DNA of 62,648 bases, filler included. It is 8 parts of 8 records of this genome, joined end to end, with 100 filler letters (N's around TTAATTAATTAA, not from the genome) between each part and the next. Parts side by side here need not be neighbours in the genome. Positions count along the whole stretch, not along the records: positions 56,857 to 62,648 come from DRR723986_8079; 7 more parts are not named here. The stretch is one strand, 5' to 3'. The position numbers were made by a program, and so were the translations under genes. Position 1 is the stretch's first letter. Each line of letters begins with the position of its first letter. The notes below the pieces were generated by a model. It did not search any database, was not told the origin of the DNA, and saw only the letters and a program-made list of their open reading frames with translations. Below are positions 5,456 through 62,648 of the stretch, piece by piece.

Positions 5456-5465
5456 CGCCAATCTG

Positions 5466-5496
5466 AAAAGCCCCGAGCCAGAAGCCCGGGGCTTTT
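5466..5496. terminator. Bidirectional intrinsic-terminator-like hairpin
   Basis: aaaagccccg...cggggctttt inverted repeat flanked by A and T tracts. Confidence 0.6.
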
Positions 5497-5585
5497 CCTT
5501 GTTTGGGGGATCGACCCCATGCCGCGCAGGGGCGGGGCTGGGTATCGTGGGGTCAGAAACACGCTCATCCACAGGAGATCCCCCG

Positions 5586-7059: not shown

Positions 7060-7196
7060 GCGTGATTTCCCTGCCATTGTCGGGAAAGACTTCGCTTCAG
7101 CCGCATGAAATTCAACCCCATCTGTTTGCGGTCGCGGAATTTCTGATTAGATTGGGGCAGAGCAGAACGGTCGCAACAAGAGGCACCCAAGCGCAG

Positions 7197-7673
7197 ATGG
7201 GCAGCTTTCGGACATATCAATCGCCAATGCGCCTGGACGGCGCGGGCAAGCGCGAACCGCGGATGCAGTTCGCCGCTCTGCCCTTTCGGCGGCGAAAGAC
7301 CGAGGTCGAGATCCTGCTGATGACCAGCCGCGATACCGGGCGCTGGATCATTCCCAAGGGCTGGCCCATGGATGGCAAGACCCCTGCCGAGGCTGCTGCA
7401 CAGGAAGCATGGGAAGAGGGGGGGCTGCGCGGGGTGATCAGCGAAACCTGCGCGGGCTTCTATTCCTACACCAAATCCTTGCCGGAGGAGGAGGGCCGCA
7501 CGCCCTGCATCGTTGCCGTCTTCCCGCTGGAGGTGCGAAAGCTGGCCAGTGATTTTCCCGAAGAGGGGATGCGCAAGCTGAAATGGTTTTCCCAACGCAA
7601 GGCTGCGGCGCGTGTCGAAGAGCCCGAGCTGAAGAAAATCATCCGCAATTTCGCACCCGGCAAATATATGTGA
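7197..7673 (+). CDS. NUDIX hydrolase
   Basis: QFAALPFR...ILLMTSRDTGRWIIPKGW and Nudix-like box AAAQEAWEEGG. Confidence 0.88.
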   Translation: MGSFRTYQSPMRLDGAGKREPRMQFAALPFRRRKTEVEILLMTSRDTGRWIIPKGWPMDGKTPAEAAAQEAWEEGGLRGVISETCAGFYSYTKSLPEEEGRTPCIVAVFPLEVRKLASDFPEEGMRKLKWFSQRKAAARVEEPELKKIIRNFAPGKYM

Positions 7674-7732
7674 CAGCCTCGTGACGTTGCAGGGCTTGAT
7701 TCTGCACCCGCGAAGATTACTGTTCTGCAATC

Positions 7733-8176
7733 ATGATCCGCTACACGCTCAAATGCGCCGATGGCCACAGCTTTGACAGCTGGTTCAAATCCGCCGAAGC
7801 CTTCGAGGCGCTCGAAGGACGCGGAATGCTGTCTTGTTCGGTTTGCGGCGGTGGAGACGTGCAAAAGGCGATGATGGCGCCGCGGGTGGCGACCAAGGCT
7901 GCGGTGGCGACGGAAGACGCCGGACCCGCGAAGACAAGCCTTTCGCAATCCGACAACCCCATGGAAGAGGCGCTGAAAGCGTTGCGCAAACATGTGGAGG
8001 AAAACTCCACCTATGTGGGCGGCAATTTTGCCAGTGAGGCGCGCAAGATCCATCTGGGCGAAGCGCCCGACCGGCTGATCCATGGCGAAGCGAAACCCGA
8101 AGAGGCCAAGGCGCTGATAGAGGATGGCATTCCCGTCGCACCCCTGCCGATCATTCCCAAGAACCGGAGCACCTGA
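7733..8176 (+). CDS. DUF1178 family protein
   Basis: MIRYTLKC..GHSFDSWF...CSVCG...KAMMAP...YVGGNFASEARKIH.GEAP.R.IHGEA. Confidence 0.88.
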   Translation: MIRYTLKCADGHSFDSWFKSAEAFEALEGRGMLSCSVCGGGDVQKAMMAPRVATKAAVATEDAGPAKTSLSQSDNPMEEALKALRKHVEENSTYVGGNFASEARKIHLGEAPDRLIHGEAKPEEAKALIEDGIPVAPLPIIPKNRST

Positions 8177-8179
8177 GAC

Positions 8180-8836
8180 ATGCACGCAGTCGTGACCGGG
8201 GCGTCCCGTGGGATCGGACTTGAACTGGTCAGGCAGTTGTCCGAACGGGGCGATGCGGTTTTGGGGACATGCCGCGATGGTCAGACCCATGGCGTGGGTG
8301 CGTGGCATCCGCTGGACGTGACGGACCCTGCCTCGGTTCAGGCGCTATCCGGCGCGCATCCGGGGGCGGTTGATCTGCTGGTGTGTAATGCCGGTGTGTA
8401 TCTGGACAAGCTGCATCAGCTGGACAGCGGCTTTCCACCCGAGATGTGGGCCCAGACCTTTGCGGTCAACGTGACGGGCGTATTTCTGACCGTGCAGGCG
8501 CTGCTGCCGCAACTGCGCGCGGCGGGGGGCGCGAAGATTGCCATTATCGGATCGCAGATGGGCAGCGATACCAAGGCGCCGGGCGGGTCGTTCATCTACC
8601 GTGCGTCGAAGGCGGCGGTGTTGAACCTCGGGCGTAATCTGGCGGCGGAACTGCTGCCAGAGGGGATTGCTGTGGGCATCTATCACCCCGGTTGGGTGCA
8701 GACCGATATGGGTGGAACTGCGGCCGATATCACGGCGGTTGCCTCCGCCGAGGGGTTGCTGACACGGTTCGAGGCGCTGTCGCTGGCCTCCACGGGGTGT
8801 TTTCAGACATGGGACGGGCGCGACCACCCTTATTGA
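8180..8836 (+). CDS. Short-chain dehydrogenase/reductase (CsgA-like)
   Basis: TGASRGIG, CNAG, YRASK and HPGWVQTDMGG motifs. Confidence 0.9.
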   Translation: MHAVVTGASRGIGLELVRQLSERGDAVLGTCRDGQTHGVGAWHPLDVTDPASVQALSGAHPGAVDLLVCNAGVYLDKLHQLDSGFPPEMWAQTFAVNVTGVFLTVQALLPQLRAAGGAKIAIIGSQMGSDTKAPGGSFIYRASKAAVLNLGRNLAAELLPEGIAVGIYHPGWVQTDMGGTAADITAVASAEGLLTRFEALSLASTGCFQTWDGRDHPY

Positions 8837-11223
8837 GCCGCGACCTCTGACAGGGTGTCGCTTTCCACGAATTCGCGCAATTCCGGGTCTTCGAGCTGCA
8901 TTTCGATGGTGCGCAGGGCGCTGTCCAGCGTCGCGCGCTGCAATGCCGCCAGATCGGTGTCTTGCAGCATCTCGTCCATGCAGCCTTGCAGATCGCCCGA
9001 GCGGATCGAGGCATCTTCGCAGGAATTCAGATCGAACTTGTCCCAGTAGCCCAGGTCGATGCGGCCTTTATCCTTGGAATTCGCGGTGCCGCGCAGGCGC
9101 TTGAGCAGAAATTCCTCTCGGCTTTTAATCGCGTAATGGTTCATCTGCGCGAAGTCATAGGCGACAATGTCCTTGTTCGACCGCCAGCCGCTGCGCAGAT
9201 ATTTCTCGCCCATGGGTTCACCACGCGCGCTGACCCAGTTGACCTGATCGGGGTGGATGTCCACCTTCTTTTCAAAGCGGGGCCGGTGAACGCCGAAATA
9301 GTCGAAACTGGCAGGACGGAAGAGCGTTTTGAACCCCCAGACAAGGCCGTTTTCAGGCTCATCCACGCGGCAGGCGCGGGTGAAGCGTTGGGTCACCGGT
9401 TCGGGCATCATGTGGCGGTGTCCGGCCGATCCGAAAAGCCGCCAGTTGATCGAGACGGCTTCGGTATTGTCCGGGCAGGCGTCGATCAGCGCATCAACGG
9501 TGCCGTCGCCCGCATGGACATTCAGGAATTCATCGGCATCTGCGATCAGCACCCAAGAGGCATCGCGCACCACATCCATCTGGTTGGCGCGGCTATAGGC
9601 GCGGCGCTGCGGGTCCATGCGGTGACCGATGGGGTTGTCGAAATGATGCACGATCCCCATGGCATCTAGCCGGTTCAGCAGCAGGTTGGTGCCATCGGTG
9701 CAATCGTTGGAAAACAGGACGAAATCATCGAAGCCCAGATTGCGGTAATGGGCGATCCATTCCAGCAGGTAGGGCCCTTCGTTCTTCATGGTGGACAGCA
9801 CCACCTTGCGCCCGTTGCCGGGGAAGGGCGCTGACATCTTTGGGCGGATGGCCGGGGCGGCGGGCGTGGCCGGTTCCGGATCTGGCACCGCGGCCCCGGC
9901 TTCGTCGATCACCTCACCGGTTTTGCGGGCCTTCTGGATCAGCGAAATCAATCGCGCGCGGGTTTCGGGGTTCAGATCCGGGGCAGGGGGCGTATCTTGC
10001 TGGTCCGGCTGAGCGGACGGGTCCAGCGCGACGCCGGTCAGCTTCGACAGTTCCTCGGCGTCTGTGGCGTCCTGCCGTTTCTCTGCGTTTCTGATGCCGG
10101 TGGACCGGGCGATCATCTTGGCGATGGTCTTGTTGGGCACGCCATCGGCCTGCATCTTGCGCACCAGTTCCTGGGTGTCCTTAGGCAGATGCTGGGTAAA
10201 GAGCACCTCGTCCAGTTGGTCGATGCGCACTGCGCCGGCTTCCCTCAGGCTTTCGACCCATTCGTCATATTCACCGGTGTGGCGCAACTGTTCGACGCGG
10301 GCGGCGTGATAGGCCAGCGCCTTGTCCTGAAGCGCGGCCAGCTTGGCGTCTTTCAGCATCTCAGCCATCAGCGCCTTGACCTTGGGCGCGTGGCGCGCGG
10401 CGCTGACGGTCGGTTCCTGTTCGTTGCGGTCGAAGATCGAGAAATAGGAGGCGTTATATTTGTCCTCCTTGTTGTTCACGTTGCCGCGCAGGCGGCGCAG
10501 CAGATAGGCCTCGTAGCTTTTCACCGCATAATGGTTCAGTTCAACGAAGTCATAGGACAGCGTCGGCCCGGTTGACCGCCAGCCGCTTTTCTTGAAGCTT
10601 TCGGTCATCGGCTTGCCGCCGCCATTCATCCATTTCAGCGCCAGCAGTTTTTCGACCTGCCCTTCCTTCGACGCCTTGTGCTTGATCGACGGGCGGTGGA
10701 TGCCGAATTTCATATCGGGGAAGGGTCGCACCATCGACTTGACGCCCCAGCCCTTGCGGAACCGGTCCGGCGCGCCGTGGGTATAGCTTTCGGTCACCAG
10801 GCCGGGCCGCCAGTCGAGCACGTTGTTGGACCCGTAGAAGCGCCAGGTGATCATGACGCCCTCGGTCCCGTCCGGCATCGCTTCGATCAGTTCCTGCACG
10901 GTGCCGTCGCCAAGCTTGATGTTGACGAATTCATCGGCGTCCATGGTCAAGACCCAGTCGCTGTCGCAAACCTCGGGGTTTTTTCCGGCCAGCCACAGCG
11001 CGTGCGGTTGCGGTTTCTTGCCCTTGGGCACCTCGTTGCGGAAATGCTGACAATAGCCCATTTCCTGCAACCGGATCAGCATGTCGTCGGTGCCGTCCTG
11101 ACAGTTGTTGGTGTAGACGCAGATGTTATCGAAGCCGATCAGGTGGTGATAGGCCACCCATTCGAGTAGGCAATGCCCCTCGTCCTTCATCATCGACAGG
11201 ATCGTATGCCTGTGTTTCGGCAT
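8830..11223 (-). CDS. Tandem two-domain glycosyltransferase family 2-like protein (~797 aa)
   Basis: Two homologous halves, each with MK(D/N)EG..LLEW.A...GFD...N.C.DGT, DADEF and NHYA.KS, joined by a Pro/Ala-rich linker. The start MPKHRH is chosen by domain start. Confidence 0.85.
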   Translation of the reverse strand: MPKHRHTILSMMKDEGHCLLEWVAYHHLIGFDNICVYTNNCQDGTDDMLIRLQEMGYCQHFRNEVPKGKKPQPHALWLAGKNPEVCDSDWVLTMDADEFVNIKLGDGTVQELIEAMPDGTEGVMITWRFYGSNNVLDWRPGLVTESYTHGAPDRFRKGWGVKSMVRPFPDMKFGIHRPSIKHKASKEGQVEKLLALKWMNGGGKPMTESFKKSGWRSTGPTLSYDFVELNHYAVKSYEAYLLRRLRGNVNNKEDKYNASYFSIFDRNEQEPTVSAARHAPKVKALMAEMLKDAKLAALQDKALAYHAARVEQLRHTGEYDEWVESLREAGAVRIDQLDEVLFTQHLPKDTQELVRKMQADGVPNKTIAKMIARSTGIRNAEKRQDATDAEELSKLTGVALDPSAQPDQQDTPPAPDLNPETRARLISLIQKARKTGEVIDEAGAAVPDPEPATPAAPAIRPKMSAPFPGNGRKVVLSTMKNEGPYLLEWIAHYRNLGFDDFVLFSNDCTDGTNLLLNRLDAMGIVHHFDNPIGHRMDPQRRAYSRANQMDVVRDASWVLIADADEFLNVHAGDGTVDALIDACPDNTEAVSINWRLFGSAGHRHMMPEPVTQRFTRACRVDEPENGLVWGFKTLFRPASFDYFGVHRPRFEKKVDIHPDQVNWVSARGEPMGEKYLRSGWRSNKDIVAYDFAQMNHYAIKSREEFLLKRLRGTANSKDKGRIDLGYWDKFDLNSCEDASIRSGDLQGCMDEMLQDTDLAALQRATLDSALRTIEMQLEDPELREFVESDTLSEVAAQ

Positions 11224-11577
11224 GAACTGCCCCCTGGGCGTGTGCCCGTTACTCGTATCCTCGTGCCGGGCCGTCTGGCGGGACCGGTCATTCATGTTGG
11301 TCAGGAGTAAAGCGCAAATCGTGCGCAATTGCGAGGGGCCTCGTGGGGATGGCTAAAATTCCAGGCATTTTGTTGCTTCAAGAGATGCGTTGATCACTCT
11401 CTCGTGATGCGCGTAAAAATTCCGTCGCGGAAATTTGTGTGCGTTTACGCGCAGAACTCTCTGCCGATTTCGCCGTTTTGGTCGGCCCAAGCCGGGCCTA
11501 TCTGCTGTCTCACAAGGCGGGTCGCACCGCCGCCACAACACCGCAAACACAGATAAGACACTCGAAAGGAAAGACCC

Positions 11578-11943
11578 ATGAAAACCCTCGCAATCACCGC
11601 TTCGCTCGTTGCTGCCCTGTCCGCCCCGGCCTTCGCCAATGACAACCTTGCAGCCTCTGTCGGCGTTGAACCCGGCCTGTACACCGTGGCCGAACTGATC
11701 CAGCTGCGCGACGCCCTGGAAGGCAATGACCAGGTCGAAGCAGCCTTCATTCTGAACGGCAACGCCAACCCGGTCGATGGCGCGGTTGCTTACGAAGCCC
11801 GCCTGCGCCAGGCAGAGGAAGATGGCGACTATGCCATCGCCGCCTATCTGCGCAACAGCGGTTCGGAAGTGATCTCGACCCAGAGCTTCGGCCAGAACGA
11901 CGTTGCCGCGCGCATCTTTGCAGAACTGGCTGCAGCGGACTGA
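11578..11943 (+). CDS. Secreted acidic hypothetical protein (121 aa)
   Basis: AAGGAAAG RBS, signal peptide ending APAFA, strong codon bias, LAASVGVEPGLYTVAELIQL motif. Confidence 0.8.
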   Translation: MKTLAITASLVAALSAPAFANDNLAASVGVEPGLYTVAELIQLRDALEGNDQVEAAFILNGNANPVDGAVAYEARLRQAEEDGDYAIAAYLRNSGSEVISTQSFGQNDVAARIFAELAAAD

Positions 11944-11954
11944 TATCGACTGCC

Positions 11955-11977
11955 GGGCAGGCCGGATCGGCCTGCCC
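11955..11977. terminator. GC-rich hairpin between convergent genes
   Basis: gggcaggccg-gat-cggcctgccc, a 10-bp perfect stem without a U-tract. Confidence 0.45.
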
Positions 11978-12110
11978 TGACCGCCCTCATCCCTGACTGT
12001 CCCCCTGTTCCTGATCCGACCCTCCCCCAAGCGGATCATCCCAGGATGCGGTGCGGTGAACCGGTTCCGACGCGCAAGTGTCGGGGCCGGTTTGCGTTAT
12101 GGGAAAGCCG

Positions 12111-13019
12111 TCAGCCGGTGGATAGAACCGTGCGGGCCAGCGCCTCGACATAGTCATCCACAGTGCCTGGCGACATGCCGCAGCGCAGGCTGTCATGATA
12201 GAGCATCCGCAGCAGCAGCTCGTCATGGCGGGTCAGAACGCCAAACTCCTCATCATCGTTGAAGATCGACGGCCGGGCCTCGGGGCTGTCATTGGCCAGA
12301 CCCATGCCCTGCGCCAGTTCTTCCTCTATGCAGGACCGGCGCATCAAGGGCGGGTGTTCGGCGCGCACGATGGCGATGGCCTGCTGATAGCCGTCGGCAG
12401 GATTGGCGCCGGGGATTGCCACAACCATGCAGAATGTATTGGGACGCATCCGCAGGATCGCCCCCTGCGCGGCGCGGCTTAACCCCGGAGCGATCTGCTG
12501 AAGCACCGACCGGGCATTGGCGCGTTCCTCGTCGTTCAGGATCAGAACGTGAAAGTTCGGGTTGGACGTGACGACGCGGATCGGGTGTCCGCTGGCCCGA
12601 TGCAGGCGCTGCGCCACGCTTTGCACGGTGGAGAGGTCGCGCCGTTGCTGCGCGCCGCTGACCGAGGGGCCAAAATGCACGCCAAGCCGGATCGGCTGTT
12701 CCCATCTGCGCAGCGGGGCAGCGCCGCCGCCCTGCGCCGCGCCCCCGCCGTGCAGGGAGTATTCGGACCGCATGGCGATAGCCATGAAGTTTCGCGCAAG
12801 CGTCGCGGCATCAAGACCCGAGGTCCATCTTTCCTGACGCAGGCGACCCTCCGACACCAGTTGATGTTCCATCTGCTGATAATAACTGGCCAGTTGCACG
12901 ACTGGTTGATGCTGGGCCATGGCCTGCGTTGCCCCAAGCGCACAGACCGCGCAGGCAGCGAGGGAACGGATCAGTCTGGCAAACGCACCCTTTGCGGGCG
13001 TGTTGCGGGTAAAGATCAT
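12111..13019 (-). CDS. DUF2927 domain protein (exported)
   Basis: LARNFMAIA..SEY, LRRWEQPIR, RAEHP.LMR.SCIEEELAQGMGLANDS..ARPSIFNDDEEF. Confidence 0.85.
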   Translation of the reverse strand: MIFTRNTPAKGAFARLIRSLAACAVCALGATQAMAQHQPVVQLASYYQQMEHQLVSEGRLRQERWTSGLDAATLARNFMAIAMRSEYSLHGGGAAQGGGAAPLRRWEQPIRLGVHFGPSVSGAQQRRDLSTVQSVAQRLHRASGHPIRVVTSNPNFHVLILNDEERANARSVLQQIAPGLSRAAQGAILRMRPNTFCMVVAIPGANPADGYQQAIAIVRAEHPPLMRRSCIEEELAQGMGLANDSPEARPSIFNDDEEFGVLTRHDELLLRMLYHDSLRCGMSPGTVDDYVEALARTVLSTG

Positions 13020-13285
13020 GTCAGTCTCCGGCACCGGGTCGGATTGCGACCCGGTGCGTGATCCGGATCGTTCGCCGACCAGTGTTCGGGGGGGGCAATC
13101 GTCTGTCAACAGCCGCGCGCAAAACGTGATCATGCACGGGAATGGCTTTCCCCTCGGGAATCAAAGTAACCGTCTGACATATAAGGTGGAAATCCACCTG
13201 ACAGGGCCGAGGGGCGGAGGATCACGTTTTTCGGTCGTACCGGCAGTTGGCGCTGTACCGGGGCCAGAGAATCGAAAGGCCGAGG

Positions 13286-15031
13286 TCAGAGCGGTGTCGT
13301 CACGCCCGCACTTTGCAACTGGTGCAGCCGCGCATAGGCGCCGTCTGCTTGCATCAGCGCCTCATGGCTGCCCTGTTCGACCACACGGCCCTTGTCCATC
13401 ACCACGATCAGGTCCGCGTTGCGGATGGTGGACAGGCGATGTGCGATGACCAGCGTCGTGCGCCCCTTGGACAGGCGGGCCAGCGCCTCGCCCACCAGTT
13501 TTTCGGATTGCGCATCGAGGGCCGAGGTGGGTTCGTCCAGCAGCAGGATCGGCGCGTCGCGGAGCATCGCGCGGGCGATGGTCACGCGCTGGCGCTGTCC
13601 GCCGGACAGGCCCGACCCGCGCGGCCCAACGGGCGTGTCCAGCCCAAGCGGCAGGGCATCGGCGAAGTCCAGCACCGAGGCAGCTTGGGCAGCGGCGCGC
13701 ACCTGCTCATCGCTTGCGTCGAGCCGCCCGAGGCGGATGTTTTGCGCGATGGTTTCGTCAAACAGCGCCTCGGCCTGACCAACAAGCGCGATGGAATCGC
13801 GCAAGCGTTCTATGTCCGCGTCGGTCGTCGCGGTGCCGCCCAGGGTAATCTGGCCAGAAGACGGATCGACCAGCCGCGACAGCAGCGAAAAGACCGTGCT
13901 TTTTCCGGCGCCGGAGGGTCCGACAAGGGCGGTGGTCTGGCCTTGGGCGGCGGTGAAGGTGAGGCCCTGAAGCACCGGCATGTTGTCATAGGCGAAATCG
14001 ACCCTGTCGAAGATCACATCGCCCTGGGTCAGAGGCTTGGGCTTTGCCGGGGGCAGGATCGTCGGGCGCGCCTCCAGCACATCGTAAAGCCGTTCAAGCG
14101 AGGCCATTGCCGCTTGTATGTTGCCGGCAAGTGCCGACAGCCGCCGCATCGGGTCGAAGACCAGAGCCAGCGCGGTGAAAAAGGACATGAACTGCCCGAC
14201 GGTCTTGTCGCCCGACATGATCTGTTGGCCGCCATAGATCAGCACCGCCAGAAAGCCGATGGCCGCGATGATGTCGATCAGCGCCGGGTTGGCGGCCTTG
14301 CCCCGCTCGGCCCGCAACTGCGCGGCAAGGAACCCGTTCACTTCGCGGTCAAAGCGGCGGGCCTCGTGGCTTTCGAGGCGGTTGACCTTGATCGAAACGA
14401 TGCCGTGAAAGATCTCATCGAGTTGCGTCGACAGGCGCGAGGCCGCTTCCCGCGCGACTCTCGTGGTCTTGCGGATCAGCTTTTGCACGAAGGTCAGCGG
14501 CAAAATCAGCAGCGGAACACCTGTAAGCGCCAGCAGCGCCCATTGCCAATCCGACCAGATCATCACCGCCAGAAGCGAAATGACCGAGATCGTATCCCGC
14601 CCGAGCGTCATCAGAGTGGCGCTGGCCATGCCCTGCAACGCCAGCGTATCGCCGCGCACCCGTTCAATCAGCGCCCCCGGCGCGTGGTCCTGAAAATAGC
14701 GCGCATCGAGCCCCAGAAGATGCGACAGCAGGCGCGATTGCAGATTGGTGGTCACGCGCAGGCCAATGGTAACAATCAGAAGGCGCTGGCCGAACCCGGA
14801 AATCGCCCGCAGGATGAACACGCCCGAAATGGCCAGAGCCACCCAGGTGACCGCCCCTGAATTGCCCGCAACAAAGAACTGATCGAACAGCGGCTGAATG
14901 AGATAGGAGATCGCGCCGAGCGAACTGCCTTCGATCACCATCAGCAGGAACGCCACGATCAGCAGTGGCCAGAACTGCACCACATGGTCTCGCCACAGGC
15001 GGATCAGAAGGTTCGATTTGGGGTCACTCAC
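13286..15031 (-). CDS. ABC transporter, fused TMD+NBD, MsbA-like lipid exporter
   Basis: N-terminal TM region, GPSGAGKS, LSGGQRQR, LLLDEPTSALD, IAHRLST. Confidence 0.92.
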   Translation of the reverse strand: MSDPKSNLLIRLWRDHVVQFWPLLIVAFLLMVIEGSSLGAISYLIQPLFDQFFVAGNSGAVTWVALAISGVFILRAISGFGQRLLIVTIGLRVTTNLQSRLLSHLLGLDARYFQDHAPGALIERVRGDTLALQGMASATLMTLGRDTISVISLLAVMIWSDWQWALLALTGVPLLILPLTFVQKLIRKTTRVAREAASRLSTQLDEIFHGIVSIKVNRLESHEARRFDREVNGFLAAQLRAERGKAANPALIDIIAAIGFLAVLIYGGQQIMSGDKTVGQFMSFFTALALVFDPMRRLSALAGNIQAAMASLERLYDVLEARPTILPPAKPKPLTQGDVIFDRVDFAYDNMPVLQGLTFTAAQGQTTALVGPSGAGKSTVFSLLSRLVDPSSGQITLGGTATTDADIERLRDSIALVGQAEALFDETIAQNIRLGRLDASDEQVRAAAQAASVLDFADALPLGLDTPVGPRGSGLSGGQRQRVTIARAMLRDAPILLLDEPTSALDAQSEKLVGEALARLSKGRTTLVIAHRLSTIRNADLIVVMDKGRVVEQGSHEALMQADGAYARLHQLQSAGVTTPL

Positions 15032-15758
15032 GGCGCAGTACCCAGTCCAGCAATCGGTTTCCGCCTCGGGTCTCGGTAAACCGGGCCGTCAGCGCTTCGG
15101 GATCATAGACCGTATCGACCCAGTCCAGAAAGCCGATACCTGTTCTGCGGCGATCTTCCGCGTAAGCGTCTATGAACGCATCCAGAATGCCGGTGCGTGT
15201 GAACCGGAAATGGGCGTGTTTCCACGACAATTGCCGGGCGACGTCCCGGGGCTCTGCCCCATGCGCCAGCAAATAGAGCACCGAGGCCAGTCCGGCCCGG
15301 TCAGCACCTGATTTGCAATGCATCAGCATCGGCTTTTCGGCGGCATCCATCAACGCCAGCGCGGCGTGGATTTCCTCGCGCGTGGGTGCGGTGTTGGAAT
15401 AGAGCCGCCCGTTGACCAGCGTTATTCCATGGGCGGCGCAGGCCTCGGCCTCCAGCAGGTAGCTGCCCCACTGGTTGGCTCCGCGGAAGTTCAGGATCGT
15501 GCGAATGCCCATATCCGCCAGCACCGCCACCTGTTCCGGCGAAGGTTGGTTCGATCGCCAGACACCGGGAGAGATCTCAAAGCGGTTGGTCCAGAGCCAT
15601 CGCACAACACCGTGGTCAAGCACGTTCATATCATAGCGCGCCGATCTGCGCGCGCCGGGGGCATCCAGATCTGCCGACCAGCCTGCACGCCACCGGGACA
15701 GCACCGCACGGCGGCGGGCGCGGTGATTGCGCAGGGCTGTCTTGAGGGCGGTGATCAC
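15024..15758 (-). CDS. Cys-based tyrosine-phosphatase-superfamily protein (CtpA-like)
   Basis: RSNQP, GIRTILNFRG and HCKSGADRAG P-loop; overlaps the start of the MsbA-like gene. Confidence 0.85.
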   Translation of the reverse strand: MITALKTALRNHRARRRAVLSRWRAGWSADLDAPGARRSARYDMNVLDHGVVRWLWTNRFEISPGVWRSNQPSPEQVAVLADMGIRTILNFRGANQWGSYLLEAEACAAHGITLVNGRLYSNTAPTREEIHAALALMDAAEKPMLMHCKSGADRAGLASVLYLLAHGAEPRDVARQLSWKHAHFRFTRTGILDAFIDAYAEDRRRTGIGFLDWVDTVYDPEALTARFTETRGGNRLLDWVLRRE

Positions 15759-15826
15759 GGGGGCAGGGGCCTCGGGCTGTTTCGGGTAGGGCTGATTACG
15801 CTGGACAGGGCCGTTTCACAAGCGCG

Positions 15827-16759
15827 TCAGGGCAACAGCAACAGCCAGCCCGAGGCGGTCAGAACCGTGGCTGCGGTGCCGATCAGCACGGCAGAGGCCG
15901 CAACCCGCTTGGCCGCGCCATACATATTGGCAAACAGATAGGCGTTGACGCCGGGGGCCATGGCCGCCGTCAGCACCGCGCCGCGCAGTTGGTCTGTTGT
16001 CAGGTCGGTCACCATGCGGCCCATTCCGTAGGCAATCGCCGGGTGAACCAGTAGCGACAGTACGCAGACATAGGCGATGACCTTGGCGTCGCCCTCGGGC
16101 CGGTAGCGGTACAGGACTCCGCCAAGGCCGAACAGCGCGGCAGGCAGGGCGGCGCGGATCATCAGCGACAAGGCCTCATCCACGATACCGGGCAGGGGCA
16201 GGGCGGTGAGGTTGACGATGAACCCCAACACGATGCCAATCATCAGCGCGTTCGAGAAAATCGCCTTGCCCACGGTTTTCAGCAGCCGCAGCGGATCGCG
16301 GGTCTGGGCGATGGCGATCTCCATCGTGGTGATACCAAGAAGGTAGCAGAACGGCGCATGGATCGAGATGATCGCATAGTTCGGCACCAGCGCCTCGGCC
16401 CCATACGCACGCTCCATGATCGGCAGGCCAAGCAGCACGGAATTGGCGAAAAGCGCTACAAACCCGATGGCGATGCTGTCAGGCAGGCTGCGCCCGAAGA
16501 TGTATCGCGCGCCAAGGATGCCAAGAACGAAACAGGCGGTGGAGCCGGTGTAGTAGCTCAGCAGCAGGCGCCAGTCGAAGCTTTGACCAAGATCGAGCGA
16601 GGAAATGGCCGCAAACAGCAGGCAAGGCACCGCGAATTTCTGGGTAAAGACCATAAGCCCGTCAACGCCGCTGTCGGAAAACAGCCCGCGCCAGACGGCC
16701 AGATACCCGGCCCCAAGCACCAGGAAGACCGGCAGGACGACGTCTAGAAGGGCGGTCAT
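15827..16759 (-). CDS. AEC family transporter
   Basis: VLPVFLVLGAGY, F.NSVLLGLPIMERAYG, AMAPGVNAYLFA; about 10 TM segments. Confidence 0.88.
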   Translation of the reverse strand: MTALLDVVLPVFLVLGAGYLAVWRGLFSDSGVDGLMVFTQKFAVPCLLFAAISSLDLGQSFDWRLLLSYYTGSTACFVLGILGARYIFGRSLPDSIAIGFVALFANSVLLGLPIMERAYGAEALVPNYAIISIHAPFCYLLGITTMEIAIAQTRDPLRLLKTVGKAIFSNALMIGIVLGFIVNLTALPLPGIVDEALSLMIRAALPAALFGLGGVLYRYRPEGDAKVIAYVCVLSLLVHPAIAYGMGRMVTDLTTDQLRGAVLTAAMAPGVNAYLFANMYGAAKRVAASAVLIGTAATVLTASGWLLLLP

Positions 16760-56856: not shown

Positions 56857-57804
56857 ATCCGTGCCTTCGAGGACAACGCCAACCAGTTGTACCTGTCCGC
56901 CAAGATGCCCGGACTGACCCATATGTATTCCGGCGAGGAAGCAGTCGCCGTGGGTATCTGCGAGGCGCTCACTGACAATGACCGCATCACCTCGACCCAT
57001 CGGGGTCATGGGCATTGCGTGGCCAAGGGCGCAGATTTCAGGCAGATGTTCTGCGAACTTCTGGGCAAGGAAGAGGGCTATTGCCGTGGCAAGGGCGGGT
57101 CGATGCACATCGCCGACCAAAGCCACGGGAACCTCGGGGCCAATGCCATTGTCGGAGGGTCAATGGGTATTGCCACGGGCTCTGCTTTGCGCGCGAAGAT
57201 GCAAGGCTCCGACGATGTGACGGTGTGCTTTTTCGGCGACGGGGCCACCGCGCAGGGCTTGCTCTACGAGGTCATGAACATGGCCGCGCTTTGGAAGCTG
57301 CCGGTCATTTATGCCTGCGAAAACAACGGCTATTCCGAGTACACCAAAACGGATGAAATCGCTGCCGGGTCCATCACCGCTCGGGCTGAGGCCTTCGGGA
57401 TCGAGGCCTTCACCGTCGACGGGCAGGACGTGCTGGCCGTCAACGATCTGACCCAGAAACTTGTCGCGCGCGCCCGCAAGGGTGAAGGACCGTTCTTTGT
57501 GGAACTGATGACCTACCGCTATCACGGCCACCACGTGGGCGACATCAACCGCGACTATTACCGGTCGAAGGAAGAAGAAACGATCTGGAAGGAACGACGC
57601 GATCCGATCGTGAATTTCGGTGCATGGCTTTCGGGTGAAGGCATCGCCAGCGCCGAGGAATTGAAAGCCATCGAGGACGACATTCGCGCAGATGCGAAGG
57701 CCGCCGTCGACTACGCGCTGGCCGCGAAATATCCCGATGAGAGCGAGGTCGACATGCATGTCTTCGCCGAAACCGACCCTGCCACGCTGCGGCCCGGCGC
57801 CTGA
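56857..57804 (+). CDS. TPP-dependent dehydrogenase E1 alpha (AcoA/PdhA-like), 5' truncated
   Basis: IRAFED..., HMYSGEEA, STHRGHGH, GKGGSMH, GDGA...ENNGY TPP motif, TYRYHGHH.GD. Confidence 0.93.
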   Translation: MRAFEDNANQLYLSAKMPGLTHMYSGEEAVAVGICEALTDNDRITSTHRGHGHCVAKGADFRQMFCELLGKEEGYCRGKGGSMHIADQSHGNLGANAIVGGSMGIATGSALRAKMQGSDDVTVCFFGDGATAQGLLYEVMNMAALWKLPVIYACENNGYSEYTKTDEIAAGSITARAEAFGIEAFTVDGQDVLAVNDLTQKLVARARKGEGPFFVELMTYRYHGHHVGDINRDYYRSKEEETIWKERRDPIVNFGAWLSGEGIASAEELKAIEDDIRADAKAAVDYALAAKYPDESEVDMHVFAETDPATLRPGA

Positions 57805-57815
57805 GGAGATCTGAC

Positions 57816-58811
57816 ATGCGTAGTATCACCCTGTCCCAGGCGGTAAACGAGGCGCTGGCCGAAGAAATGCGCCGCGACGCGACCGTCTTCATCATCGGCG
57901 AGGACGTGGCGGAGGCCGGCACGCCGTTCAAGGTGCTGTCCGGCCTCGTCGAGGAATTCGGCACGGACCGCGTTATCGACACTCCGATTGCTGAGCCCGG
58001 TTTCATGGGTCTTGCCGTTGGCGCAGCCATGACCGGCGCGCGGCCTGTCGTCGATCTGATGTTCGGGGATTTCCTCTTCCTGATCATGGATCAGCTCTGC
58101 AATCAGGCGGCGAAGACCCACTACATGTCGGGTGGCAAGCTGAACGTGCCGCTGGTACTTCGCACCAATCTGGGCGCAACTCGGCGGTCTGCCGCGCAGC
58201 ACAGCCAGTCCTTGCACGCTTTGGTGGCTCATATTCCGGGGTTGAAAGTAGCCCTGCCATCGAGCGCCTATGAGGCCAAGGGTCTGATGAAGACCGCGAT
58301 CCGAGACAACAACCCGGTCGTGATCTTCGAAGACAAGCTGATGTATAACGACAAGGCCCCGGTCCCCGAAGAAGAGTTCCTGATCCCCTTCGGCGAGGCC
58401 AATATCAAACGCGAAGGCAGCGACATCACGCTGATCGGCACCTCGTCGATGGTGCAGGTCTGTGAAAAGGCCGCCGAGATTCTGGCCAACGAGGGCATCA
58501 GCGCCGAAGTGATCGACCCGCGCACCATCGTGCCGCTGGATGAGGCGACGCTAATCGCTTCCGCCAAGAAGACCAGCCGTGTGATCGTGGTCGATGAGGG
58601 TCACCAGAGCTTCGGCATCACCGGCGAGATCGCGTCTCGCATCAACGAAAAGGCGTTCTACCATCTCGATGCGCCAGTGCTGCGCATGGGGGCGATGGAT
58701 GTGCCGGTGCCCTTCAGCCCGGCGCTAGAGGATATCACCGTGCCGACGCCCGAAGGCGTGGCCGAGAACGCCCGCAAGCTGATGTCCGGGGAGATGATAG
58801 ATGCCGCATGA
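57816..58811 (+). CDS. E1 beta (AcoB/PdhB-like)
   Basis: GEDV, RVIDTPIAE, DQLCNQAAK, AAQHSQS, EVIDPRT..PLD. Confidence 0.94.
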   Translation: MRSITLSQAVNEALAEEMRRDATVFIIGEDVAEAGTPFKVLSGLVEEFGTDRVIDTPIAEPGFMGLAVGAAMTGARPVVDLMFGDFLFLIMDQLCNQAAKTHYMSGGKLNVPLVLRTNLGATRRSAAQHSQSLHALVAHIPGLKVALPSSAYEAKGLMKTAIRDNNPVVIFEDKLMYNDKAPVPEEEFLIPFGEANIKREGSDITLIGTSSMVQVCEKAAEILANEGISAEVIDPRTIVPLDEATLIASAKKTSRVIVVDEGHQSFGITGEIASRINEKAFYHLDAPVLRMGAMDVPVPFSPALEDITVPTPEGVAENARKLMSGEMIDAA

Positions 58812-60057
58812 GGTGATCATGCCCGCCCTCGGCATGGCGCAGGATACCGGCAAGATCGTGAGCTGGCTGAAAAGCCCCGGCGACGCGGTCAAGGCGGGCG
58901 ATGCGCTGTTCGAGGTGGAAACCGACAAGGCGACGATGGAGGTCGAGGCCCCCGCCGACGGGTTCCTGACTGACGTGACCGCAGGCGATGGCGAGGACGT
59001 GCCCGTTGGCAACGTGATCGCGCTGATCTCGGACACGGCCGAGGGCAGTGGCACATCCGCCCCAGAGCCCGTTGCGGCCGCACCCACCAGCGATGACCTG
59101 CCCGACGGCACCGGCATCATCATGCCCGCGCTTGGCATGGCGCAGGACGAGGGCCTGATCGTCGCGTGGCACAAGGCACCGGGTGAGGCCGTGACCTCTG
59201 GCGACATCCTGTTCGAGGTGGAAACCGACAAGGCCACGATGGAGGTGGAGGCGGGCCATGACGGCTTCGTCGCGGCATTGCTGGCAAAGGCCGGAGAGGC
59301 CGCGCCCGTTGGCGAAGTCATTGCCATCATATCGGAAAAAGCACCGGCCAACCCCGTCAGCCGCAATTGGTCAGGCAGCGCCAGACCCGCGCCCGCGAAG
59401 GAAGAGACCAAGGCCGCTCCGGCACCGAAACCCGCCGCCAAACCTGCGGCGAAGACTTGCTCGCTGGTGCCCAGTGGCGGGCGCATCCTCGCCTCGCCCA
59501 AGGCGCGCAGGATCACACGGCAAGAGGGGTTGGATCTGCAAAGGCTGGTCGAGGCGGGCCTTCCGCAACCCTATCACACCGCCGATCTGAACGTGCTGCG
59601 CAGCCTGCCTGCCAAGGCTGAACCTGCCACGGCCAACGCGGCAGCGGTCAGTCGTCACCTTACAGCAGAAGTTCCCGCCAGGGCTCTTGCGGATTTCTGT
59701 GCCTGGGCCGCTGAGGAAACTGGCGCGCCTTTGGACCGCCCAGCACTGCTGGCCCGCTTCGCCACTGCCGCACTTGGCGAGCCGCACACTGCCGTTGCTG
59801 TCGAGGCCCATGGCCAGACGAGGACGATCCCGGAAGGCGCGGAGCCGCAGCTTGTTCTCCGTGACCTGGCTGGATCGCCCTTCACCTCGATCAGTCTGGG
59901 GGCTGAAAACACCCCGGTGTTGACGCTGACCGGCATGGGCGACACGCTGACCATCACACTCGAATGCGCGCCCGGGCACCTCTCTGCCGCACAGGCGCTG
60001 TCCCTCATGAGCGGATTTGCCGGTCGGCTTGCCGAACCGCTCCGCCATTTGCTCTGA
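58801..60057 (+). CDS. E2-like protein: two lipoyl domains, PSBD, and a shortened degenerate acyltransferase-like C-terminus
   Basis: Two EVETDKATMEVEA motifs, ILASPKARR PSBD; the C-terminus LTITLECAPGHLSAAQA...LAEPLRHLL lacks the DHR..DG motif. Confidence 0.88.
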   Translation: MPHEVIMPALGMAQDTGKIVSWLKSPGDAVKAGDALFEVETDKATMEVEAPADGFLTDVTAGDGEDVPVGNVIALISDTAEGSGTSAPEPVAAAPTSDDLPDGTGIIMPALGMAQDEGLIVAWHKAPGEAVTSGDILFEVETDKATMEVEAGHDGFVAALLAKAGEAAPVGEVIAIISEKAPANPVSRNWSGSARPAPAKEETKAAPAPKPAAKPAAKTCSLVPSGGRILASPKARRITRQEGLDLQRLVEAGLPQPYHTADLNVLRSLPAKAEPATANAAAVSRHLTAEVPARALADFCAWAAEETGAPLDRPALLARFATAALGEPHTAVAVEAHGQTRTIPEGAEPQLVLRDLAGSPFTSISLGAENTPVLTLTGMGDTLTITLECAPGHLSAAQALSLMSGFAGRLAEPLRHLL

Positions 60058-60073
60058 CCCCGCGAGGACCGAC

Positions 60074-61504
60074 ATGGATTACACCGATCTCTATATCAAC
60101 GGCCAATGGCGTGACGGCGCTGACAAGGTCCGTTTCGACGTTCTGAACCCTGCAACCGAGGAAGTGCTAGCGTCCGTTGCCTCTGCTGAGATTGCCGATG
60201 CCGACGCCGCGCTGGACGCTGCCGAGGCCGCGATGAAGGACTGGGCCGCGCGCACCCCGCGGCAGCGCTCCGAAGTCTTGCGCAAGGCGTGGGAGTTGAT
60301 GACCGTGAAGCTCGATCACTTCGCCCATCTGATCACGCTGGAAAACGGCAAGGCGCGCGTCGATGCCATGGGCGAGGCCGCCTATGCCGCCGAATTCTTC
60401 CGCTGGTTCGCGGAAGAAGCCGTGCGCGCCGACGGGCTGATCACTCATGCCCCCGCGTCCGGCGCGCGGATCATCGTCCAGCACAAGCCTGCGGGCCTCG
60501 CCGTGCTGATCACGCCGTGGAACTACCCTGCCGCCATGGGCACCCGCAAGATCGCGCCCGCTTTGGCCGCTGGCTGCGGCGTGATCATCAAGCCTGCCTC
60601 GGAAACCCCGCTGACCATGCTGGCGCTGATGCCGCTGCTTGAGGAAGCGGGCGTCCCTGCTGGTCTGGTAAACGTCTTGCCCTCGCGCCGCACGGGTGCG
60701 CTGGTCGATCACATGCTGCACGATCCGCGCGTGCGTGTGGTCAGCTTCACCGGCTCCACCGGCGTGGGCCGCAAGCTGCTTAAGGGGGCCGCAGATCAGG
60801 TGCTGAAACCGGCGATGGAACTGGGCGGCAACGCGCCCTGCATCGTGTTCGACGACGCCGATATGGAGACCGCCATCGAGGGCACGATGCTGGCCAAGAT
60901 GCGCAACCTGGGCGAGGCCTGCACCGCCGCCAACCGCATCTATGTGCATGAGGACGTGGCCGAGGACTTCACCCGCCGTCTGGTCGAACGCATGCAGGCG
61001 CTGAAACTGGGCGACGGCACCGATCCCACGGTCGATGTCGGCCCGCTGGTCAACGCAGACACCCGCGACAAGGTGGCGGAGTTCGTGGCGGACGCGCTGG
61101 CCAAGGGGGCGAAACTTGAATGCGGGGGCGCGGTGCCGACTGGCAAAGGGTATTTCTATCCGCCCACGGTGATCTCCAACGTGCCGGAAACCGCAGACTG
61201 TGTGCAGGACGAGATCTTCGGCCCAGTCGCCGCGATCCAGACCTTCACCGATCAGGAGGACGTGATCAAACGTGCCAACGACACCGAGTACGGGCTGGTG
61301 GCCTATGTCTTCAGCGAGGACATGAAGCGCGCGCTACAGGTTTGCGAGCGGCTGGACTATGGCATGGTAGGTCTCAACCGGGGCCTCGTCTCGGACCCCG
61401 CCGCGCCCTTTGGTGGCACCAAGCAATCGGGACTCGGTCGCGAAGGCGGACACGAGGGCATGCTGGAGTTCATGGAAACCCAATATATCTCGGCCAGTTG
61501 GTAA
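60074..61504 (+). CDS. NAD(P)-dependent aldehyde dehydrogenase (SSADH/GabD-like)
   Basis: ITPWNYP, KPASETP, SFTGST, MELGGNAP, GEACTAANR, EIFGP, PFGG.KQSGLGREG. Confidence 0.94.
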   Translation: MDYTDLYINGQWRDGADKVRFDVLNPATEEVLASVASAEIADADAALDAAEAAMKDWAARTPRQRSEVLRKAWELMTVKLDHFAHLITLENGKARVDAMGEAAYAAEFFRWFAEEAVRADGLITHAPASGARIIVQHKPAGLAVLITPWNYPAAMGTRKIAPALAAGCGVIIKPASETPLTMLALMPLLEEAGVPAGLVNVLPSRRTGALVDHMLHDPRVRVVSFTGSTGVGRKLLKGAADQVLKPAMELGGNAPCIVFDDADMETAIEGTMLAKMRNLGEACTAANRIYVHEDVAEDFTRRLVERMQALKLGDGTDPTVDVGPLVNADTRDKVAEFVADALAKGAKLECGGAVPTGKGYFYPPTVISNVPETADCVQDEIFGPVAAIQTFTDQEDVIKRANDTEYGLVAYVFSEDMKRALQVCERLDYGMVGLNRGLVSDPAAPFGGTKQSGLGREGGHEGMLEFMETQYISASW

Positions 61505-61515
61505 GGGGAGCGGTC

Positions 61516-62406
61516 ATGAAGATTCAGGCAAGCCCGAGCACCAGGTACTACGCCGCCAACAAGGGCGTCGATCTGGACGCACTGGCCATACAAACCGGCC
61601 GCATGACCCTCGGTCGCGAAGACGTGGATGCGCATCTAAACGGGGGCGGCAAGGCACCCACCCTCGACGCTAGCCGGTACTGGGATGTGGACCATGCGGC
61701 CTATGGACCGGTGAAGGAAGAGCCGCTTTCGCGCATCGCGCAGATCGCTTCGGCCAATCTGTCTGCGGCCAACACGATGATCCCGCAAGTGACCCATCAT
61801 GACCGCGCCGATATGCGTGCGGTCGAGGCGTTCCGCAAGACGCTGAGGGACGAGGGCGCGGCGCGGGGCGTGAAGATCACGGCGCTGGCCTTCCACGTCA
61901 TGGCACTGGCCCGGACGCTCAGGGCCATCCCACGGTTCAACGCGTCGCTGACGCCGGATGGCGAAACGCTTGTGCTCAAGGACTATGTCCATATCGGCAT
62001 CGCCGTGGACACGCCCCATGGCCTGATGGTCCCGGTCATCCGAGACGCGGACAAAAAGGGCCTTTGGCAGATCGCAACGGATATCGCGGATCTTGCTGCA
62101 CGCGCCGGGACGCGAAAGCTGAGCGGTGCAGACATGGGTGGCGGGTCGATGTCACTCTCGAACCTTGGTGGCATCGGCGGCAGCGCCTTTACCCCCATAG
62201 TGAACCCACCGGAGTTGGCGATCCTCGGCCTCACCCGCACCGAGACCGTGCCCGTCTGGGAGGGCGGAGAATGGACCCCCGTTCCGATGGCACCGCTTGA
62301 CCTGTCCTACGATCACCGCGTCATCAACGGTGCGGACGCGGCGCGGTTCCTGAGCTATTTCGCACGTCTTCTGGCCGATCCGCGCCGGCTCGTTCTTCCA
62401 GTCTGA
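61516..62406 (+). CDS. Dihydrolipoamide acyltransferase catalytic protein lacking lipoyl domains
   Basis: GGGGAG RBS; starts at PSBD-like QASPSTR; HIGIAVDTP.GL.VPVIR, SLSNLGGIGG, FTPIVNPPE, LSYDHRVINGADAARF. Confidence 0.9.
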   Translation: MKIQASPSTRYYAANKGVDLDALAIQTGRMTLGREDVDAHLNGGGKAPTLDASRYWDVDHAAYGPVKEEPLSRIAQIASANLSAANTMIPQVTHHDRADMRAVEAFRKTLRDEGAARGVKITALAFHVMALARTLRAIPRFNASLTPDGETLVLKDYVHIGIAVDTPHGLMVPVIRDADKKGLWQIATDIADLAARAGTRKLSGADMGGGSMSLSNLGGIGGSAFTPIVNPPELAILGLTRTETVPVWEGGEWTPVPMAPLDLSYDHRVINGADAARFLSYFARLLADPRRLVLPV

Positions 62407-62466
62407 CCTGTGCCTTCGTCACAAGCCGACACCCGGAAAAAGCGCCGCGCCAGCGCCGTTCCTTGT

Positions 62467-62499
62467 TGACCCTCCCCGACTGAAGTGGCCCGCCCCTAG
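62467..62499. mobile_element. Possible degenerate IS3-family terminal inverted repeat remnant
   Basis: TGACCTCCCCGACTGAAGTGGCCCGCCCCT resembles, from memory, TGA.CTGC.CCC....AAGTGGTCC IS3-type ends. No transposase is present. Confidence 0.3.
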
Positions 62500-62618
62500 T
62501 GCCTTGGGCTATCGGTGGCCAAGCGGTCTGCGGTGGAAGCTATGTGAAAGCCAAGGAACGGATGCGTGCCGACTCGCAAGAAGCGATCTACGCAAGTTTT
62601 TGATTGTATTTTGAAAAG

Positions 62619-62648
62619 TGGCGATCCCGCGAGGACTCGAACCCCGAA
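62619..62648 (-). tRNA. tRNA 3' fragment (T-arm, acceptor, CCA), possibly tRNA-Arg
   Basis: Reverse complement TTCGGGGTTCGAGTCCTCGCGGGATCGCCA; the anticodon lies outside the window. Confidence 0.8.

Follow-up and report, generated by a model that had tools for sequence, protein, structure and literature searches.

2-Oxoacid dehydrogenase complexes are the textbook case of substrate channelling by swinging arms that are borne on the catalytic core itself. The marine bacterial locus described here raises the question of whether arms and catalysis can be given to two different proteins, as neither of its two E2-like products is a single chain holding every E2 part. One product, which we call LIP2, is the sole lipoyl carrier of its operon, and the other, CORE, is its sole intact acyltransferase.

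Domain anatomy of LIP2 and CORE

The window, i.e. the whole stretch of DNA that was analysed (62,648 nucleotides), consists of contig pieces strung together by N linkers (seven TTAATTAATTAA linkers). The piece carrying the E2 genes begins at 56858, inside the gene for E1 alpha, stops 242 bases past CORE, and encodes E1 alpha, E1 beta, LIP2, an aldehyde dehydrogenase (ALDH) and CORE in that order, all on the plus strand. The TPP-dependent E1 alpha subunit (56858..57804; PF00676 E1_dh, E 9.2e-77) is truncated at its 5′ end by the start of the piece (N linker to 56857), with an open reading frame from 56887. The E1 beta subunit (57816..58811) carries Transket_pyr and Transketolase_C, scores 392.8 bits on NF006667 (cut-off 321), and overlaps with its 3′ end the first 11 bases of LIP2 (58801..60057, 418 aa), which has GGGGAG 7 nt upstream of its ATG. 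Between the E2 halves lies the succinate-semialdehyde-dehydrogenase-like ALDH (60074..61504), which matches PF00171 at E 1.5e-160 and scores 539 bits on TIGR01780, below the cut-off of 646. CORE (61516..62406, 296 aa) follows with its own ribosome binding site (RBS; GGGGAG at 61505-61510). Given the start/stop overlap and the short gaps with RBSs, the genes from E1 alpha to CORE appear to form one operon. A promoter and terminator scan gave signals no better than shuffled sequence, and ARAGORN found no tRNA in 62300-62648. Short, low-depth contigs were seen in four sequencing runs that are guessed, not recorded, to be RNA; two of these contigs, in run X5, run from LIP2 into ALDH or from ALDH into CORE, although a contig that spans a gene boundary does not demonstrate a single transcript.

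The preliminary description read LIP2 as two lipoyl domains together with one peripheral-subunit-binding domain (PSBD) and a dead, shrunken core, and CORE as a protein with its own RBS, a PSBD-like start, an intact core and no lipoyl domain. Domain searches bear out both descriptions. PF00364 (Biotin_lipoyl) matches LIP2 at E 3.4e-37 in two stretches, each with an ETDKA lipoyl-lysine motif: lipoyl domain 1 takes up residues 1-80 (58801..59040, match over 3-76) and lipoyl domain 2 residues 104-180 (59110..59340), where the NCBIfam alignments begin (residues 105-106). The top NCBIfam model, AcoC NF011457, covers the lipoyl domains only and reaches 162.6 of the 307 bits that its cut-off demands, and residues 106-283 score 147 bits on the PDH E2 model TIGR01349. 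The LIP2 PSBD (residues ~228-268; 59482..59604) is predicted as three short helices (pLDDT 91-97), and its sequence diverges from the E1/E3-binding Geobacillus stearothermophilus type; the E3_binding match is weak (E 0.005, under the Pfam cut-off) and confined to the first helix, as is the likeness to solved PSBDs (E 0.25). Within it, an ASPKARR motif is nearly invariant among 38 orthologues.

Pfam finds no lipoyl domain in CORE. Its PSBD is of the canonical kind (residues 3-44; 61522..61647): the first 45 residues are a full-length match to that of G. stearothermophilus (1w85_I, E 3.4e-4), and the model has three helices in residues 7-41 (pLDDT 77-90). The catalytic domain (residues 57-294; 61684..62397) matches PF00198 at E 3.8e-74 and the structures 4n72 and 1eaa at E about 1e-68. 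From the PSBD through the C-terminus, CORE aligns with residues 328-630 of Escherichia coli AceF (7b9k, E 1.2e-68) and retains SNLG and DHRVING, the latter with His267 at 62314-62316. The lipoyl feature of a canonical E2 is accordingly found in LIP2 and absent from CORE alone, and the catalytic feature (the His of DHRxxDG/NG and the Ser of SN(L/I)G) is found in CORE and absent from LIP2.

The C-terminal domain of LIP2, referred to here as the mini-core (59644..60054), has about 136-137 residues versus about 230 in a normal E2 core, of which structure comparison shows it to lack ~25-50 residues at the start and about 70 from the interior. PF00198 does not match LIP2 even at E<=10, and the mini-core matches no Pfam or NCBIfam family; a fold search returns E2 and CAT acyltransferases exclusively. 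Profile comparison of LIP2 with CORE aligned the PSBDs alone (probability 68%), and hhalign of the mini-core against CORE on trimmed alignments gave a probability of 13.8% (E 0.002), with the C-terminus as the sole confident stretch. Since this profile-profile similarity is weak, it is the fold, with the motif at the C-terminus, that leads us to regard the mini-core as homologous to the E2 core. The end of LIP2 had been said to parallel the end of E2 but to lack DHR..(D/N)G, and this agrees with the alignment, in which confident pairing is restricted to the last ~35 residues, at the end of CORE, and His267 falls opposite Pro391 of LIP2, a position that is variable (P, G, A, S, D and others) in the 38 orthologues. 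The conserved motifs of the mini-core are LRDL, PVLTLT, TLEC and FAGR..PLRHLL, the C-terminal tail paralleling that of E2; the Asp of LRDL and the Arg of FAGR are invariant in the same orthologues and Trp and Pro residues nearly so, and variability within the domain peaks in the region opposite the canonical active-site His.

Conservation, linkage and exceptions

Both architectures are conserved. The best 120 relatives of LIP2 align over 97-100% of the query at 53-98% identity, none with PF00198, and the best 120 relatives of CORE are 252-326 aa long, none with a lipoyl domain. At E<=1e-3 the mini-core family comprises 289 representative clusters, and at the stricter E<=1e-10 it still has 204. 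Its dN/dS is 0.18-0.30, compared with 0.11-0.16 for lipoyl domain 1 and 0.05-0.09 for lipoyl domain 2 of LIP2; the mini-core is under purifying selection, and neither LIP2 nor CORE is decaying.

Among 301 genomes of the Rhodobacterales, LIP2 occurs in 41, about one in seven, and in 38 of these a CORE orthologue lies on the same contig. The joint survey suggested in the preliminary description thus finds its proposed division of arms and catalysis between two complementary proteins to be widely kept. The two genes are separated by 1.44-1.49 kb in 34 genomes and are directly adjacent in two (G008, G014); every one of the 38 genomes with a lipoyl-less CORE orthologue has LIP2 beside it, a 39th having the fused form. 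In a search for related loci, 74 of the 80 retained were lipoyl-domain matches (Bacteroidota and others) and were excluded; six were orthologous, of which four have the complete order E1 alpha, E1 beta, LIP2, ALDH, CORE and two are cut by contig ends. On the conjugative plasmid pGal_E78 of Phaeobacter gallaeciensis, the genes SBP-SDR-M24-E1a-E1b-LIP2-SSADH-E2-lpdA form a single block; lpdA was found neither in the window nor in 12 related loci. As two to three ordinary full-length E2s are encoded elsewhere in each of the genomes G001-G004, the LIP2/CORE system is an extra, dedicated one.

The pattern has exceptions. One of the orthologous clusters examined (G006) encodes an ordinary unsplit lipoyl-PSBD-core E2 of 410 aa, which shares 51% identity with CORE and 48% with the lipoyl and PSBD region of LIP2; the chemistry can thus do without the split. 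In a tree of E1 beta, with an unresolved base and a long outgroup branch, this sequence pairs with that of G014, where the split genes are adjacent (support 93/96), which fits a secondary fusion without proving one. An intact, highly conserved E1a-E1b-LIP2-ALDH cluster with no CORE nearby is present in G108, in G180 and at one of two loci in a third genome (G289), and at E<=1e-60 no CORE orthologue is present anywhere in G108 or G180. From these intact clusters it appears that LIP2 can function without CORE, which counts against an obligate heteromeric core. In the E1 beta phylogeny, two of these CORE-less clusters branch inside the clade to which the window's cluster belongs (support 98/96), so that the loss of CORE looks recent and tolerated. 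A further cluster (G036) is decayed, with LIP2 in three pieces and a fragment of ALDH. The preliminary description held that its reading would fall if homologous clusters had a full E2 and this copy showed decay, or if the two proteins did not co-occur. Decay is contradicted by the dN/dS values and separate occurrence by 38 of the 41 genomes; a full E2 in a homologous cluster was found once, and LIP2 without CORE in two genomes and at one of two loci in a third.

The Pfam and NCBIfam names of the neighbouring genes are generic (sugar-type ABC transporter, solute-binding protein, SDR, M24). The SDR upstream in relatives scores 201 bits on an acetoin-reductase model (cut-off 304), and the M24 protein, also upstream, is DddP-like at 116 bits versus a cut-off of 600. 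Together with the ALDH, these two genes give a weak hint of a C-C cleavage of the acetoin type, with an aldehyde set free. The cluster marks an uncharacterised catabolic pathway, plasmid-borne in Phaeobacter.

A proposed two-protein E2 and its rivals

We slightly favour, with a probability of about 0.55, the reading that LIP2 and CORE make up a two-protein E2 of a specialised pyruvate- or acetoin-dehydrogenase-like system, in which they are obligate partners and the mini-core is an assembly domain. E1 alpha and beta, with thiamine diphosphate, would cleave or decarboxylate the substrate and acylate the lipoyl-lysines of LIP2; the acyl-dihydrolipoyl arm would then reach the active site of CORE, which would transfer the acyl group to CoA. 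E3 (dihydrolipoyl dehydrogenase) would re-oxidise the arm, being encoded in the cluster on the Phaeobacter plasmid and elsewhere presumably common to other complexes. The canonical PSBD of CORE should dock E1 and/or E3, LIP2 providing a second, divergent PSBD, and the dead mini-core may hold the arms at the CORE oligomer in the manner of the inner domain of E3BP in the mitochondrial pyruvate dehydrogenase complex (PDC). A more specific form of this proposal is that an E2/E3BP-like heteromeric core arose independently in Rhodobacterales and some other marine Alphaproteobacteria, with every arm on the dead subunit, the mini-core plugged into an arm-less active oligomer and the two PSBDs sorting E1 and E3. 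We put this forward tentatively, with the odds somewhat against it; if true, the mini-core would set the lower size limit for natural modules that can join an E2 core.

The strongest rival, which we consider rather unlikely, takes LIP2 to be a free-standing lipoyl carrier or scaffold, the mini-core of which only self-oligomerises LIP2 (for example into trimers) as the PSBD collects E1 and/or E3 and the arms visit CORE, or any E2 core, transiently, much as AceF lends its arms to OdhA in the actinobacterial hybrid complex. The CORE-less clusters are what such a carrier would lead one to expect, and ordinary E2s remain for its arms to visit, two to three in each of G001-G004; the LIP2 lipoyl domains score well on an ordinary PDH E2 model (TIGR01349), and CORE, with its own canonical PSBD, could recruit partners alone, as could LIP2. 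However, a free carrier does not call for the tight linkage with CORE in 38 of 41 genomes, nor would it need a core-like domain of 136 residues. The conserved PLRHLL tail is also against it, as it parallels the C-terminal tail of the E2 core, which in E2 structures mediates core-core contacts.

Still less probable is a new function for the mini-core other than assembly, be it binding of E1, binding of a small-molecule effector, or a hydrolase or transferase activity that uses other residues. The invariant Asp and Arg, the near-invariant Trp and Pro, the purifying selection and the retention of LIP2 where CORE was lost are all compatible with one, but such a function sits poorly with the variability of the region opposite the canonical His, with a fold search that returns acyltransferases of the E2 and CAT kinds only, and with the lack of any Pfam or NCBIfam family for the domain. 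That LIP2 is merely a decaying former E2 and CORE an unrelated truncated one, in an arrangement accidental to this genome or assembly, is barely credible, for the decayed G036 cluster and the normal E2 of the G006 cluster are outweighed by intact reading frames of the same architecture in the best 120 relatives, the 204 clusters at E<=1e-10, the low dN/dS and the conserved synteny and linkage, which refute decay of LIP2, and an assembly artefact or frameshifted single E2 is ruled out by conservation in many independent genomes.

If the two-protein reading holds, the operon would offer a bacterial example, natural and conserved, of arms and catalysis on separate polypeptides, convergent with the E2/E3BP pair of mitochondria and found in bacteria amenable to genetics. 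Work on it could reveal which elements of the E2 fold assembly requires and which catalysis requires, as unsplit (G006), adjacent split (G008, G014), ALDH-interrupted split and CORE-less clusters provide a natural comparative series. No description of the split E2 or its operon was found in the literature searched, most subscription journals lying outside the scope of that search.

Comparison with known systems

CORE is like the canonical E2s (the AceF type of E. coli and Azotobacter vinelandii, and E2p of G. stearothermophilus) over its PSBD and catalytic domain. In those proteins, however, the three modules are in a single chain, whereas here they are divided between two genes, usually with the ALDH between them, and are accompanied by one more PSBD and by the vestige of another core.

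The acetoin dehydrogenase system (AcoA/AcoB/AcoC/AcoL) is similar in its heteromeric E1 alpha/beta and lipoyl protein, in the SDR found upstream in relatives, and in the presence of an ALDH able to take the released aldehyde. LIP2 falls short of the curated score for an AcoC-type E2 (NF011457), and the known aco operons are without the DddP/creatinase-like M24 protein and the 560-aa solute-binding protein of the LIP2/CORE cluster.

In the actinobacterial PDH/ODH hybrid complex, OdhA relies on lipoyl domains supplied by AceF, and an acyltransferase without lipoyl domains forms one chain with E1o (OdhA/KGD). CORE shows no such fusion: its 296 residues, PSBD included, make up a protein of their own, and E1 is a separate alpha/beta pair. 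The lipoyl donors differ too, AceF having a fully active core and LIP2 a dead, shrunken one.

A likeness to E3BP (protein X) of eukaryotes had been pointed out, and for the eukaryotic PDC it stands up: LIP2 has the same series of lipoyl domain(s), PSBD and E2-fold domain without catalytic His. LIP2 is no more similar to E3BP than to any E2, and does not share descent with the eukaryotic E3BP lineage by this test; the bacterial system is of independent origin. Its dead domain is also shorter, at ~136 residues compared with about 205-230 in E3BP, and the allocation of the arms is different, for the eukaryotic E2 partner retains its lipoyl domains, whereas CORE has none and LIP2 carries them all.

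The operon and its two complementary proteins

At least eight contig pieces make up the window, with seven N-flanked TTAATTAATTAA linkers between them (at 5400, 22459, 27898, 37807, 45045, 50305 and 56801), and genes across a linker are not genomic neighbours. The finding is confined to the last piece (56858-62648), which starts within an E1 alpha gene and is filled by five genes, all in the same direction: E1 alpha (56858 to 57804, its 5' end outside the piece; PF00676, 9.2e-77), E1 beta (57816-58811), the di-lipoyl carrier LIP2 (58801-60057, 418 aa), an aldehyde dehydrogenase (ALDH, 60074-61504; PF00171, 1.5e-160) that is SSADH-like but under the curated cut-off, and CORE, a lipoyl-less E2 (61516-62406, 296 aa). 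The first 11 bases of LIP2 lie within E1 beta, gaps of 16 and 11 bases separate LIP2 from ALDH and ALDH from CORE, and GGGGAG lies 5' of both the LIP2 and CORE starts. Among the matches listed, the nearest named relatives of both proteins are from Nioella species (80-87% identity). The preceding contig piece (50313-56757) is separate from that carrying LIP2 and CORE; by eye, its ORFs resemble what we take to be a GntR-type regulator, a TRAP-type transporter and sugar-acid enzymes.

The anatomy proposed for the two proteins in the preliminary description holds. LIP2 carries two lipoyl domains (PF00364, 3.4e-37) with ETDKA motifs and a weak signal for a peripheral-subunit-binding domain (PSBD, E 0.005), and has no match to 2-oxoacid_dh, even at E<=10. 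CORE has PF00198 at 3.8e-74 and no lipoyl domain; its alignment to residues 328-630 of E. coli AceF (E 1.2e-68) shows SNLG and DHRVING retained, and in its AlphaFold model (mean pLDDT 80.4) the catalytic domain is preceded by three helices at the N-terminus. Residues 1-45 of CORE match a solved PSBD, that of G. stearothermophilus (1w85_I), end to end (E 3.4e-4), whereas the LIP2 PSBD resembles solved PSBDs in the first helix only (E 0.25). Judged from these matches, the canonical docking domain is therefore that of CORE and the divergent one that of LIP2.

Linkage, natural variants and genomic context

Our collection scan was dominated by the lipoyl motif, and 6 of 80 loci are orthologous. The order E1 alpha-E1 beta-LIP2-ALDH-CORE is identical in the Aquicoccus, Actibacterium, Hongsoonwoonella (Stappiaceae) and Sagittula loci, and those of Roseicyclus and Tritonibacter are interrupted by contig ends. 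Among 301 genomes from the order of Aquicoccus, LIP2 residues 215-418 have matches in 46, of which five match in the PSBD alone and the other 41 are true carriers; with CORE as query, an orthologue (55-88% identity) lies on the same contig and strand in 38 of these 41, showing co-occurrence of the two proteins. The LIP2-CORE gap is 1.44-1.49 kb in 34 genomes, which is the size of the ALDH gene (its identity being confirmed in the fetched loci only), 107 bases in genome G008 and about 220 in G014, both without ALDH, and 926, 1683 and 2240 bases in three other cases. No lipoyl-less CORE orthologue without LIP2 was found among the 301 genomes; about 37 further matches, at 42-49% identity, belong to full-length E2s of the ordinary kind, which lie in frames of 421-596 aa and have no E1 alpha/beta neighbours. 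Ordinary E2s also accompany the cluster (2-3 per genome, checked in G001-G004). In a class-level sample, 4 of 401 genomes have the full C-terminal domain of LIP2.

The exceptions to co-occurrence are three CORE-less clusters, in G108 (locus L119), G180 (L117) and one of the two clusters of G289 (L120), where an intact block of genes for a solute-binding protein (SBP), an SDR, an M24 protein, E1 alpha, E1 beta, LIP2 and ALDH is followed by unrelated genes; no CORE orthologue at E<=1e-60 was found anywhere in the G108 or G180 genomes. In an E1 beta tree, two of the three group inside the same clade as the cluster in the window (98/96). The CORE-less clusters keep alive a model in which LIP2 is a free scaffold whose arms could also be served by another E2.

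The preliminary description had raised a full E2 in homologous clusters together with decay of the present copy; most clusters keep an intact split, G006 has a full E2 and G036 has decayed. The G006 cluster (L111, contig C4) is orthologous (M24 80%, E1 alpha 74% and E1 beta 78% identical) and encodes a single ordinary 410-aa E2 with lipoyl domain, PSBD and PF00198 (7317-8549, minus strand). Its lipoyl/PSBD part, including a LIP2-type PSBD, resembles LIP2 (48%), and from the LWDMDH motif on it resembles CORE (51%), as would be expected if everything after the LIP2 PSBD, up to and including the CORE PSBD, had been deleted. This unsplit E2 could be the ancestral form, or a secondary fusion through such a loss between the PSBDs; the E1 beta tree, whose base is unresolved, joins G006 with G014 (93/96), where the split genes are adjacent. 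In G036 (L118, contig C43, about 7479-9741) the cluster is broken, LIP2 matches being three out-of-register pieces and the first ~100 residues of ALDH alone remaining.

Upstream in relatives are a sugar-type ABC transporter, a ~560-aa SBP, an SDR (201 bits on the acetoin-reductase model) and an M24 protein (116 bits on the DddP model), the first score being under the model's cut-off and the second far under it. SDR and ALDH are missing from G006, G008 and G014, and the minimal module common to the clusters is SBP-M24-E1 alpha/beta-E2. The SBP-domain protein (3792-5759 in locus L001), whose N-terminal part has no assigned family, and the creatinase/DddP-like M24 protein (6644-7942) lie beside E1 alpha/beta in all fetched clusters whose locus takes in the upstream region, even those without SDR/ALDH. 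The whole block is found at 5053-16021 of pGal_E78 (NC_023141.1), a 78-kb conjugative plasmid of Phaeobacter gallaeciensis, with the SBP at 5053-6744, M24 at 7638-8936 and lpdA (E3) as last gene; LIP2 is annotated there as "biotin/lipoyl-containing protein" and CORE as "2-oxo acid dehydrogenase subunit E2". Plasmid records with a LIP2 relative number 18, of which 12 are from Phaeobacter, 3 from Tritonibacter and the rest from others, indicating that the module is mobile. lpdA was not found in the window or in 12 other loci examined.

The mini-core of LIP2

LIP2 residues 215-418, folded from a 47-row alignment, give a predicted structure (mean pLDDT 91.3) that Foldseek matches at probability 1.00 to PDB entries for E2 catalytic cores and chloramphenicol acetyltransferases, with a best E of 1.1e-7. 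On this model, the shrunken C-terminal domain (mini-core) is a genuine E2 fold, minus the first ~25-50 residues and ~70 internal residues. At sequence level little of its relation to CORE is left: aligned profile to profile, it and the CORE family reach a probability of 13.8% (E 0.002), and confident pairing is limited to the C-terminal ~35 residues. This bears out the proposed parallel to the E2 end without a catalytic His, as A-P391-G of LIP2 lies opposite D-H267-R of CORE, and FAGRLAEPLRHLL opposite FARLLADPRRLVL. The His-equivalent position varies among 38 LIP2 orthologues, in which LRDL, PVLTLT, TLEC and FAGR..PLRHLL are conserved. A ~15-residue loop of most orthologues (columns 143-158 of their alignment) is missing from the window mini-core (compared over 59443-60054) and from its closest relatives (loci L081 and L084), placing the window copy among the shortest mini-cores.

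Each architecture is uniform across its best 120 relatives listed, those of LIP2 (418-448 aa, 97-100% query coverage, 53-98% identity) having no precomputed PF00198 and those of CORE (252-326 aa) all having PF00198 and no lipoyl domain. When all 1.84 billion representatives were scanned by HMMER with LIP2 215-418, 289 clusters passed E<=1e-3, of which 204 also passed 1e-10 and 30 passed 1e-30; the match is always C-terminal, and protein lengths fall around two sizes, ~330 aa with one lipoyl domain and ~440 aa with two. In comparisons with four close relatives, the lipoyl domains have a dN/dS of 0.05-0.16, the PSBD one of 0.13-0.26 and the mini-core one of 0.18-0.30. Decay of LIP2 is ruled out by its full-length relatives, the 204 clusters and the mini-core dN/dS.

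Proposed cooperation and likeness to known complexes

Since LIP2, the sole lipoyl carrier of the operon, is dead in its core, and CORE, the one active acyltransferase, lacks arms, the two must, on sequence grounds, cooperate: E1 would load the LIP2 lipoyl arms, CORE would discharge LIP2 to CoA and E3 would reoxidise it. As the mini-core is kept under selection and its conserved C-terminal tail is like that of E2 cores, our best guess is a role in assembly, with putative docking to CORE like that of E3BP, the dead E2-like partner in mitochondrial complexes. No description of the split-E2 architecture or the operon was found in the full-text literature, most subscription journals excepted. That the two PSBDs differ raises the possibility of E1 and E3 being sorted to different subunits by putative binding to one or the other, a sorting that the discussion of PMC10156792 argues for E2/E3BP. 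For a free scaffold with LIP2 arms served by another E2, the actinobacterial OdhA/AceF complex would, in outline, be the model.
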